This document shows positions 1 to 3,000 of a stretch of 64,000 bases of DNA, piece after piece. Position numbers: made by a program. Every line of letters begins with the position of its first letter. The first letter of the stretch is position 1. Where the stretch lies: the NCBI RefSeq assembly GCF_057098645.1, contig NZ_CM169472.1. One strand, 5' to 3'.

Positions 1-3000
1 ACCGTCCTTAATCCACCAGCGAATCGCTTCGCAGGCACCTTTTAGATCACCTGCATTAATCCGTCTGTAAAACGTAGACGGGAAACACTTACCGGGGCCA
101 ATGTTATAAGGACAAAATGACGCGATACCCGCCTTCTGGGGTTCGGTCAGCGGTACTTTAATATTGCGCTCCACCCACTCCAGCGCCTTATCACGTTCAA
201 TGGCGTTAACCTGGTCGCATTTTTCCTTCGACAACTTCATGCCCGGGACGACAGGTTTACCATCCACTCGGGTGGTACCGCGGCAGATGGTCCAGATCCC
301 CGCACCATCACGGTATGCCGTGGTGTGGTTACCTTCTTTTTCGTCAAGAAACTGGTCGAGGATTTCAGGCGCAGACGCCCCTGCACCAATCAGCGCCAGA
401 ACGGCAGCCGACAGGCCGTATCTGATTTTTGCGTTCATGGATATTTATCAGGGTTTATCGATTTCAAATCCCTGGATATGTTAAGTCTTCAGGCCAGCGG
501 TGGAGTCTTCAGAGAACCAGTAATTATTCCCGGTAGTTTTCCTCTGTAGGTTATCAACACATCCTGCGCCTCTAAAATTACGGGGCGCTTTTCCGGCAAC
601 GGACCATCCCCTTCACATAACCCGGCAGCAACATCCATGAAAAACTGCTTCGCCTGCTTTTTCGCCTCAGCTTCGTAAAACTCCAGCGTGGCACCTTCAG
701 TACGGTCAAGACTAATCGCCACATCTGGCAACAACAGTGACGGATACCCACCAATTTCCAGTGCCACAGTAACAGTAATCTTATCCGGGTAATTATTTAT
801 CCCTTTAACACCCAGTTCGTATTTTTTCTTCATCGCTTTACTCCCCCCGCGCCGCCTTACGACGGTCCTCTCTGATTTTGAAATACAGGTTAGTCAGATA
901 CGTCAGCAGGCCAAACAGCAGACTCCCCAGCACACCGATTGCCACCCACTGGGACGGAGAGACTTTGTCCAGCAGCTGCAGTAACCAGTATCCCGTCCCC
1001 ACCGCTGACGTGGTGTATGACACACCTGTTGTGATTTTTTCCATCTGATGTATGTCTCCGTCACCGCCGACAGAAAATGAAAGTAAAGGAAAACAAAAAG
1101 CCGCCAGTGTCGCCCACTGACGGCCAACGCCGGGAGCCGTGATTATGGCATTCAGGCTCTGCTAAAAATGCCAGATAACATTCCGGCTCCCCCCCCTGAT
1201 TCAGGTTATAAATGACACAATATCTTGACAACACCCATCACTGTCTGTCAGAAAATGTACTGCCAGATATAAGTATCATGTGAAACCCAACTATCCTTCT
1301 TAGCCAGTACTTCTCCGACGAAAGTCAGTACTGGCTGTTTTTTTATTATGCTGCCGGTGCATTTATCTCCAGCATCAGACTTTCTATCTCAACGCCATAC
1401 GCTGCATTTTTTGTAACATCCGTCAGCGTCAGCGCATTCAGTCCCAGTGTCAGACTGTCTTTTATAACCTGGAATGCCGGGCCAGCCACTCCATTCAGTT
1501 TCGGAGTAACCGTGGCACTGCCGGCGGTGAACACCAGCTCCAGCGTCTGCCAGTCGTTACCGTAATCGCCGAACTCCCCCAGCTTCGTGTTTCCGGCTTT
1601 CCTGTGATGCATCAGATTCACTCTGCCGTCAGTGGTCTGAGTGAAGTACGACATCAGGAACGGATTACCGGTACCCGTCATCGCCACACCATCAGGAACG
1701 GGAGCATCCGTATACAGATAAATCCCCAGCCCGAACTGATTGTTGGTCAGTGCGCCTGACAGGCGGAACTTACAGGTCAGTCTGCCGCCCTGTGTCAGCA
1801 GGGTAATTGCGTCATCCACCGGATGCGTCAGGGACCAGGTTTTATTGCTCTGCTTGGTGATCTTAAATACACCATCTGACAACTGAATTCCGCCATCCTT
1901 AATGCTCCAGCCCTGCGCAGCAGCCTCTCCGGCTGCCGGCAGCAGGGAGATTGTGCGAACGGACGTATCTGCAGACGGACCCGATGGCGTGTTGCCGCCG
2001 GGCGAGGGTTTGATTTCCGGTGCCTTACCACTGATGAAGGCTGAGGTGCGCCCGGCTGCGTTCAGAATAGCGGTTGCCAGACGATCCGGAATAATGCTCC
2101 TGCGCGCCCATGAACTGAAATGTGTCGGGCGGTTTGATGATACCTGGTTTCCATTCGTTCTCGATGCCGCACCGTAATATCCTGATGCCGGAATATCCGG
2201 ATCTTCTGCCGGCGCGTTAGTGGCGGTATTGACGCCGTTACCGTCTGTCATGAAGGGCACAAAATAAACGCCCTCACTCTCCCTGTTTTTATACCCGCCG
2301 TACACGGTGTCGTACTGGGTAGCGTATGTATTTTTCCAGTAATACGTCGTGTCACCACAAATCCACGGCACATCTGCAGCACTGCCACCATGGCACTGCG
2401 CGTTAAACACGGAGAGGTCAGCACGAAACTGTGTCAGCATGGCTGTAAACAGCGCAGGTTGCTGTGCGTGGGTGGCGGCGCTCATGTCAAACTCACCCTG
2501 CATCCAGCAGACGGCCAGCAGAACGTTTTTGGGATTTTTCTGCAATGCCGCTTTTGTGCGGGAAATCAGATCCTGATATAACGGCTTGCCCACCCCCCAG
2601 CGCGCCGAATCCTGACTGGCCCCCGTGGACTCGCTGAATGTCCCCTCCGCGCCCTGGGTAAATGCCGAACCACCACGACAGCATGGTACCAGCAGGATCC
2701 CCGCGTTATTCGGGATATACGGGAGCAGTTTTTTGGCAATATGTAAACCCTGGCCGACACAGCCGTACTGCCCTTTGCTCAGGTCAGCCCTCGGATGATT
2801 CAGCGTACTCATATCCTGCACATCATGCAGACAGTGGTCAGCCGGAATAATATCGTTATATCTGCAGGCAGCCCCGCCCGGCGTCACTGTACTGCGGCGC
2901 GCCAGCTGTTTAATGCGCGGATCCGGAGCATCGTATGAATCCGGCAGCGGAAGCCCTTCACCGTAAGCCATGGCATTGGACTGCCCGGCCAGTACGATGA

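Follow-up and report, generated by a model that had tools for sequence, protein, structure and literature searches.

A hairpin facing the late genes between nanS-p and holin in a lambdoid prophage is probably the terminator of a PasA-family small RNA gene

What would a transcription terminator do on a strand that carries none of the surrounding protein genes? This question is raised by a hairpin between the nanS-p (sialate O-acetylesterase) and holin genes of a lambdoid prophage, found in a 64-kb stretch of DNA (NCBI RefSeq assembly GCF_057098645.1, contig NZ_CM169472.1; hereafter the window, to which all unattributed positions refer). Gene-size open reading frames (ORFs) near the hairpin lie on the minus strand only: nanS-p, the class II holin gene and a YdfR-family ORF, which is followed on the same strand by a lysozyme gene (Table 1). 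RefSeq and most phage records leave the nanS-p/holin region blank. The original prediction had taken the hairpin for a plus-strand terminator that may stop antisense transcription from entering the lysis genes, or else for a processing site in the late transcript. Having analysed its structure, conservation, covariation, homology and position, we conclude, with a probability of roughly 0.88, that the hairpin and its U7 tract are the Rho-independent terminator of a PasA-family small RNA (sRNA) gene at about 1260-1344 on the plus strand. Plus-strand expression, the 3' end, and Hfq binding and dependence come from homologues, from which we infer the expression and function of the window allele. 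The locus is a sequence variant of an already described sRNA family (PasA in EPEC, EcOnc51 and EcOnc52 in EHEC), and is explained by that family rather than new.

The plus strand at 1302-1344 reads AGCCAGTACT-TCTCCGACGAAAGTC-AGTACTGGCT-G-TTTTTTT, the same sequence as originally described, and the corresponding RNA folds into a 10-bp stem with five G-C pairs, a 5-nt internal loop, a 3-bp GAC/GUC helix and a GAAA cap. By itself the hairpin has a folding energy of -17.1 kcal/mol (z = -5.1, with 0 of 200 shuffles as good), and with its flanks one of -18.7 kcal/mol (z = -5.0); the motif AGCCAG-N14-30-CTGGCT-N0-2-T6 occurs once in the window, with 0 expected from 100 shuffles. Chance does not account for such values, and we take the hairpin as real. 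It joins the two features of an intrinsic terminator, namely a stable, G-C-containing stem-loop and a U-tract directly 3' of it on the transcribed strand, and with the U-run on the plus strand and all nearby gene-size ORFs on the minus strand, its predicted orientation against every local protein gene holds. The minus-strand fold reaches -17.2 kcal/mol (z = -3.7); there the hairpin stands between A7 on its 5' side and AAGAAGGAUAG on its 3' side, which leaves no U-run, as had also been predicted, and sets it apart from a bidirectional terminator with a U-tract on both strands. A consensus terminator scan did not list the hairpin at 1302-1344, only because it admits loops of 3-8 nt and the outer loop of this hairpin has 15 nt. 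One base lies between the end of the U-run and the nanS-p stop codon, and, read on the minus strand, the hairpin begins 10 nt past that codon.

Table 1. Features of the nanS-p/holin region, with positions in the window.
Feature	Position	Strand	Basis
YdfR-family ORF	489..833	-	ORF and identical RefSeq locus
Class II holin S	838..1044	-	ORF and identical RefSeq locus; downstream in the late operon
Candidate -35 hexamer TTGACA, perfect consensus	1225..1230	+	Present in all but 1 of ~110 related IMG/VR loci (collected with a pattern inside or beside this region); putative promoter role
Candidate extended -10 element TGT-CAGAAA, 15 nt after the -35 hexamer	1246..1254	+	Sequence; same layout in module 2; putative promoter role
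PasA-family sRNA gene, 85 nt, antisense to the late operon	1260..1344	+	Ungapped BLAST homology to EPEC PasA
Terminator stem, 5' arm AGCCAGTACT	1302..1311	+	Sequence and fold; matches the position of the proposed PasA seed
Terminator loop region, with inner GAC-GAAA-GUC mini-helix at 1317-1326	1312..1326	+	Fold
Terminator stem, 3' arm AGTACTGGCT	1327..1336	+	Sequence and fold; pairs 7-10 vary on both sides across variants
U7 tract, termination point and likely Hfq-binding 3' tail	1338..1344	+	T6-T8 kept in 30 of 30 distinct module variants
nanS-p, SASA-family sialate O-acetylesterase, 616-aa ORF	1346..3196	-	ORF; annotated as SASA family carbohydrate esterase in identical RefSeq locus

The identity of the gene that would end at this hairpin is given by homology. 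RNA-seq, RIL-seq and Northern blotting located PasA in EPEC E2348/69 (Pearl Mizrahi et al. 2021, PMC8550237); Table S6 of that study places it on the minus strand of NC_011601.1, from 743499 to 743415 in its major form (85 nt) and to 743264 in its minor form (236 nt), between E2348C_0688 and E2348C_0689 in the orientation '> < >', and lists it as Northern-confirmed with the probe GCCAGCACTGACTTTCGGTGGAGAG. RefSeq annotates these two neighbours as a SASA esterase and a class II holin, and the probe is complementary to the strand of the window hairpin. BLAST aligns window 1190-1344 with E2348/69 743569-743415 without a gap, which places PasA at window 1260-1344 and its major 3' end on the last T of the run. 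Across the 85 positions the window agrees with EPEC PasA at 70 (82% identity, no gaps) and with the Sakai Sp12 copy underlying EcOnc51 at 75 (88%, no gaps). The locus has the location that characterizes the family, in a lambdoid prophage between the sialate esterase and holin genes and antisense to both, and it has retained the 3' stem-loop and poly-U with compensatory changes. The seed predicted for PasA in EPEC, GCCAGCACCU, is the 5' arm of the terminator stem, an overlap called unusual by Zhu, Shabalina and Storz (2026; bioRxiv 10.64898/2026.05.13.724894). This proposed seed is not kept in the window, which reads GCCAGUACUU, with two substitutions, because the inner stem GUAC/GUAC replaces the GCAC/GUGC of PasA (a compensatory C-G to U-A change). 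When folded, the 85-nt RNA is predicted to begin with a small hairpin, followed by 23 unpaired nt that end in CCUUCUU and then by the terminator, a modelled layout that is typical of Hfq sRNAs.

Published data on the homologues supply the transcript itself. Under activating conditions, deletion of hfq in EPEC lowers PasA by 2.8 log2 units (adjusted p = 8e-17), and RIL-seq gives PasA 41 partners, among the most connected sRNAs in the network, with a U-tract score of 7; the 3' end of the adjacent nanS-p is one of the sequences with which it pairs. Table S6 of PMC8550237 adds the note 'Homologues identified in EHEC (EcOnc51/EcOnc52)'. These two are Hfq-CRAC peaks in EHEC O157:H7 Sakai, EcOnc51 in Sp12 (2237479-2237555, plus strand) and EcOnc52 in Sp4 (1181998-1182075, minus strand), both flagged for a Rho-independent terminator and neither with a Northern entry (Tree et al. 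2014, PMC4104026, Table S2); the coordinates, taken from the 2014 table and read on a later version of the record, fall cleanly into the expected intergenic gaps. The Sakai late genes run on the minus strand in Sp12 and on the plus strand in Sp4, and both peaks are therefore antisense to them. EcOnc51 spans the sRNA body, hairpin and U-run of a module homologous to that of the window (module 1), and EcOnc52 spans TCTCTACAAAC...AGCCAGCG...CGCTGGCTC-T7, which adjoins the nanS-p stop codon and belongs to a paralogous module (module 2). This placement agrees independently with the homology note in Table S6 of PMC8550237. A literature search for later work on EcOnc51 and EcOnc52 found nothing. A lack of plus-strand transcription, which would have told against the original prediction, is thus contradicted at homologous loci, by the Northern, RNA-seq and RIL-seq data on PasA in EPEC and by Hfq-CRAC of EcOnc51/52 in EHEC.

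The intergenic region is widespread. Of 5426 complete E. coli genomes, BLAST finds about 690-698 that contain it, and the median number of sites in these genomes is 6; it is also present in Stx1a-converting phages, H-19B, YYZ-2008 and phage 434, and 60-70 complete E. coli records match it at 99% identity or more. The phage 434 record carries two 'terminator' features opposite the late genes, about 146 bp apart and on the same strand, each spanning the 3' arm and T-run of one module, the first in the homologous hairpin. Scanning IMG/VR with an 18-mer taken from the promoter region gave 114 stretches, in which 21 distinct first-module and 9 second-module variants occur. In a comparison of 13 distinct hairpins, pairing in the 10-pair stem is kept in 94.6% of cells: its outer six pairs are invariant and the four inner pairs change on both sides (C-G to U-A, G-C to A-U), and in a control with a slid 3' partner pairing falls to 22-54%. 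This covariation reflects few variant classes rather than many independent events, and the support that it lends to the stem is real but modest. The inner GAC/GUC helix of the loop is not conserved in PasA, PasC or module-2 variants. In PasC-type variants the stem contains a U-G pair, equivalent to a C-A mismatch on the minus strand; since these U-G pairs and the kept T6-T8 run fit the plus strand only, the plus-strand RNA appears to be the one under selection.

Upstream of the hairpin, the candidate -35 and extended -10 elements of Table 1 probably predict an sRNA start near 1260, with a weak -10 hexamer. The sequence CAGGTTATAAATGACACAATATCTTGACA, about 110 bp before the terminator, is identical, with a single exception, across the related loci examined, a figure biased by the collection of these loci with a pattern inside or beside the promoter region. 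Module 2 of the relatives has the same layout, TTGACA-N15-TGT-GAAAAA, which gives the element the form TGT-(C/G)A(G/A)AAA, and in both modules RNA starts about 6 nt past the -10 element: the start of PasA coverage corresponds to window 1260, and the EcOnc52 peak runs from TCTCTAC. A consensus promoter scan did not list the TGT-CAGAAA promoter, because the scan demands T at the last -10 position. The original prediction had overlooked this conserved promoter-like sequence about 110 bp upstream, and with it the reading of the hairpin as the 3' end of a dedicated sRNA gene. The promoter assignment may be wrong, given the weak -10 element and a PasA 5' end that may result from cleavage of a longer transcript (Zhu et al., bioRxiv 10.64898/2026.05.13.724894). 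An alternative promoter, CTGTCA-17-TATAAG (1245-1273), which would yield an RNA of about 64 nt, was rejected as the main promoter because module 2 lacks the same spacing and because PasA and EcOnc52 both start upstream of the start that it predicts.

In the mechanism that we propose, RNA polymerase would start from the TTGACA and extended -10 elements, make about 85 nt, and be released at the U-run, one base short of the end of the nanS-p frame. Because release would come before the nanS-p reading frame, the antisense RNA would stay out of it. The suggestion that the hairpin blocks antisense transcription is accordingly upheld as to the terminator role and revised as to the gene protected, which would be nanS-p and not the holin and lysis genes, since plus-strand transcription runs away from holin and towards nanS-p. 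In relatives with two modules, the 236-nt minor form of PasA would represent read-through to the second terminator. A stem followed by a U-tail is the established module by which Hfq-dependent sRNAs engage the proximal face of Hfq; the stem-loop and U-tail of the window allele would serve as such a 3' module and stabilise the sRNA.

The window allele has a distinct layout. Most relatives (phage 434, E2348/69 and Sakai Sp12 among them) contain two tandem homologous modules, and the window contains the first only: the second module of about 146 bp is missing, with the junction inside the T-run, which sets the PasA terminator directly against nanS-p. Single-module and two-module loci are equally represented in the IMG/VR sample (49 of each). 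IMG/VR prophages hold 15 intact copies identical to the window copy, and two further copies in which the window stem type is followed by module 2; the latter fit a deletion between the two T-runs. Strains with this exact allele include O157:H7 PV15-279, O103:H2 20151001 and O145:H28 16003. In many O157:H7 genomes IS629 is inserted in the hairpin; the window allele is intact. PasC-type genes, in which the 5' part of module 1 is joined to a hairpin of a type that also occurs at the module-2 position, look like recombinants of the two modules, an inference in keeping with the shared ancestry that Zhu et al. (bioRxiv 10.64898/2026.05.13.724894) propose for PasA and PasC. The same survey, which covers the distribution of the Pas family, states that pasA copies are not tandem duplicates, and the tandem paralogue (module 2) appears to have gone unrecognised as such. 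The tandem second module and the pattern of recombination and deletion are the only points here that are mildly new. With two seed substitutions, the targets of the window allele may differ from those of EPEC PasA.

A broader proposal, which we regard as possible but unlikely, is that the nanS-p/holin gap is a recombining cassette of two tandem sRNA modules, from which PasA may tune the esterase and lysis genes in cis. Each module would have its own promoter and an AGCCAG...CUGGCU-U7 terminator, and could be exchanged or lost via the shared promoter, stem and T-run, giving rise to new sRNA alleles such as the single-module form of the window, the module 1/2 hybrid of PasC and the alleles hit by IS629. 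The idea of tuning in cis comes from the full complementarity of PasA to the late transcript just upstream of holin and from its pairing with the 3' end of nanS-p in RIL-seq. RNAduplex, applied to the sRNA and the nanS-p 3' end, returned long duplexes riddled with loops, from which no pairing could be read.

Other readings of the hairpin must be weighed against that of an sRNA terminator. It might act chiefly in the minus-strand late transcript, protecting the 3' end of nanS-p mRNA or providing an RNase processing site before holin, as its position 10 nt past the nanS-p stop codon, the stability of the minus-strand fold (-17.2 kcal/mol, z = -3.7) and the sense-strand fragments from the intergenic region in EPEC RIL-seq would allow. 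We consider this improbable: the minus strand has no U-run and turns the U-G pairs of PasC-type stems into C-A mismatches, the T6-T8 run and the upstream promoter-like elements fit the plus strand only, and strand-specific data on homologues show abundant RNA from the opposite strand. A role in the late transcript could nevertheless be a secondary effect, PasA being fully complementary to that stretch.

It is very improbable that the hairpin is an insulator only, blocking stray antisense transcription into nanS-p and releasing a short RNA without function. Against this reading stand the dedicated and conserved promoter-like element about 110 bp upstream, the Hfq dependence and high RIL-seq connectivity of PasA in EPEC, and the retention of multiple copies of the family by about 690 of the 5426 complete E. 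coli genomes; in its favour, the terminator lies exactly at the gene border, published work has not established a function for PasA, and the window allele alters the proposed seed. The chance that the hairpin is an accidental inverted repeat or a dead, inactive relic of recombination is close to negligible. A relic would be compatible with an arrangement that arose through the loss of about 146 bp at the T-run, and with the tolerance of many O157:H7 genomes for IS629 in the hairpin, but not readily with a z-score near -5, a motif that appears in no shuffle of the window, compensatory changes that preserve the pairing of the stem, 15 identical intact IMG/VR copies, and 60-70 E. coli records at least 99% identical. 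The terminator of a PasA-family sRNA gene is the reading that we retain.

Among known systems, PasA of EPEC E2348/69 shares with the window sRNA its position, antisense orientation, 85-nt length, stem-loop and U7 ending at the same base, and a nearly identical upstream TTGACA region; it differs at 15 of 85 positions, in the C-G to U-A stem change, in the seed (GCCAGCACCU against GCCAGUACUU), and in the downstream second module, reached by its 236-nt minor form and absent from the window. The Sakai peaks are likewise antisense to the late genes, and EcOnc51 covers a module 1 homologous to that of the window, but the Sakai copies have the GCAC/GUGC stem and keep module 2, and in Sp4 module 1 is replaced by IS629. 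PasC, from EPEC prophage PP5, has the same promoter region, 5' part and outer six pairs (AGCCAG/CUGGCU) as the window copy, and its U-run likewise lies directly against the stop codon of nanS-p, whereas its inner stem and loop, AGCCAGCGUCC...GGGCGCUGGCU, are of a type also found in the module-2 position. Phage lambda OOP is, like PasA, a short constitutive phage RNA directed against a phage operon and ending at its own intrinsic terminator; it differs in that it overlaps the cII gene that it targets and works in cis together with RNase III, whereas PasA ends short of nanS-p and most of the partners reported for it lie in trans, with Hfq as mediator.

AgvB and AsxR (RF02702, RF02703) are also short sRNAs bound by Hfq, and prophages of the same class encode them in the moron region, on the strand opposite to the late transcript. 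They lie upstream of nanS-p, whereas the window sRNA lies downstream, they measure 51-60 nt, and they show no sequence match; an anti-sRNA identity of this kind was rejected on the position of the site downstream of nanS-p and the absence of RF02702 or RF02703 matches in 1-8000 at E <= 1. Rfam 15 contains no PasA model, and the locus is unannotated in RefSeq. Searched in gathering mode over the whole window, Rfam gave no match at the hairpin site; in E-value mode over 1-8000 only Bacillus ncr982 matched there, scoring 28.5 bits where the gathering threshold is 50 (E = 0.59), a match that we attribute to chance.

To a specialist the finding is unsurprising, and its practical consequence is one of annotation: sequence records should show the 'orphan' terminator as the point where a PasA-family sRNA gene ends. 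In EPEC and EHEC, sRNAs of the PasA type are abundant partners of Hfq and interact with core and virulence mRNAs, and because of these interactions the allelic differences described here (the altered seed, the loss of module 2, and IS629 insertion in O157:H7) could shift sRNA repertoires between outbreak lineages.

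In most relatives, a second sRNA module, paralogous to the first, lies between PasA (the homologue of the Hfq-dependent prophage sRNA of EPEC E2348/69) and the nanS-p stop codon. It carries its own TTGACA element and a AGCCAGCG...CGCTGGCU-U7 terminator, and is the site of the Hfq-CRAC peak EcOnc52 in prophage Sp4 of EHEC Sakai. The window is without this module, which is missing at the 1344/1345 junction. Because the 2026 survey of Pas sRNAs holds that pasA copies are not tandem duplicates (Zhu et al., bioRxiv 10.64898/2026.05.13.724894), the second-module paralogue seems to have gone unrecognised so far.

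At the PasA locus of many O157:H7 genomes, IS629/IS1203 interrupts the 5' arm of the terminator hairpin, with the junction AGCCAGTA|IS|GTACTTC and a 3-bp duplication of GTA; the same junction recurs in three IMG/VR loci, and in two others the 3' arm is broken after AGTGCT by unrelated sequence. The insertion splits the sRNA body from its terminator in the O157:H7 alleles. The window hairpin is intact and free of IS629/IS1203.

Within the 3' end of nanS-p is the sequence CUGAUGCUGGA, also found in the adjacent esterase gene of EPEC, which is among the PasA RIL-seq targets and whose copy of the site is complementary to the PasA seed. The seed variant of the window would replace one G-C pair with this site by a G-U pair. 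Two terminator-like hairpins, both on the late-gene strand, lie in the stretch from the PasA promoter to the start codon of the holin gene. Hairpin 1 is nearly identical across all relatives and has a counterpart labelled 'terminator' in the phage 434 record; a candidate TTGTCA-15-TATAAC element may give rise to a short, divergent transcript with its end at these hairpins.

The late-gene strand also has an STnc100 match directly upstream of nanS-p; the match occupies the PasD/STnc100 position, and sRNA genes therefore lie on both sides of nanS-p, as they do in prophage PP2 of E2348/69. Farther upstream is a moron region. The PV15-279 locus, otherwise identical to the window, differs in carrying three tRNAs and another Q region; upstream of about 3200 the window is therefore a mosaic.

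Features in the window and related loci
Feature	Position	Strand	Remarks
Second module	L001 2541-2686		equivalents in L004, L005
IS629/IS1203 insertion point	1307-1309		example locus L120 (NZ_CP038421.1) 1190-2500
Terminator-like hairpin 1	1099-1125	-	GGCCGTCAGTGGGCGACACTGGCGGCT, then TTTTTGTTTTC
Terminator-like hairpin 2	1170-1187	-
TTGTCA-15-TATAAC, promoter-like	~1229-1203	-
CUGAUGCUGGA site	1368-1378	-
STnc100 match	3334-3506	-	100.8 bits, E = 1e-21
Terminator of STnc100 match	3291-3309	-
TerB-like ORF	3675-4178	-	moron region
tRNA-Arg(UCU)	4276-4352	-	moron region
CAU-anticodon tRNA	4453-4528	-	moron region; ARAGORN call Met; annotated Ile in relatives
AraC-family regulator ORF	4557-5270	-	moron region
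Q-like antiterminator ORF	5828-6394	-	moron region
Other Rfam matches, gathering level	8822-8996, 17166-17282, 17650-17701, 26979-27107, 28922-29106, 40467-40583

The remaining RNA families, matched at the Rfam gathering level, are the sok antitoxin RNA, two ALIL pseudoknots, DicF, EFASI, and a C4 antisense RNA with isrK/c4-a1b1. ALIL pseudoknots are frameshift sites of the IS3 family, and the two present therefore imply two IS copies. Together with several tRNAs at 22-57 kb, these matches suggest at least two prophages or mobile elements in the window.
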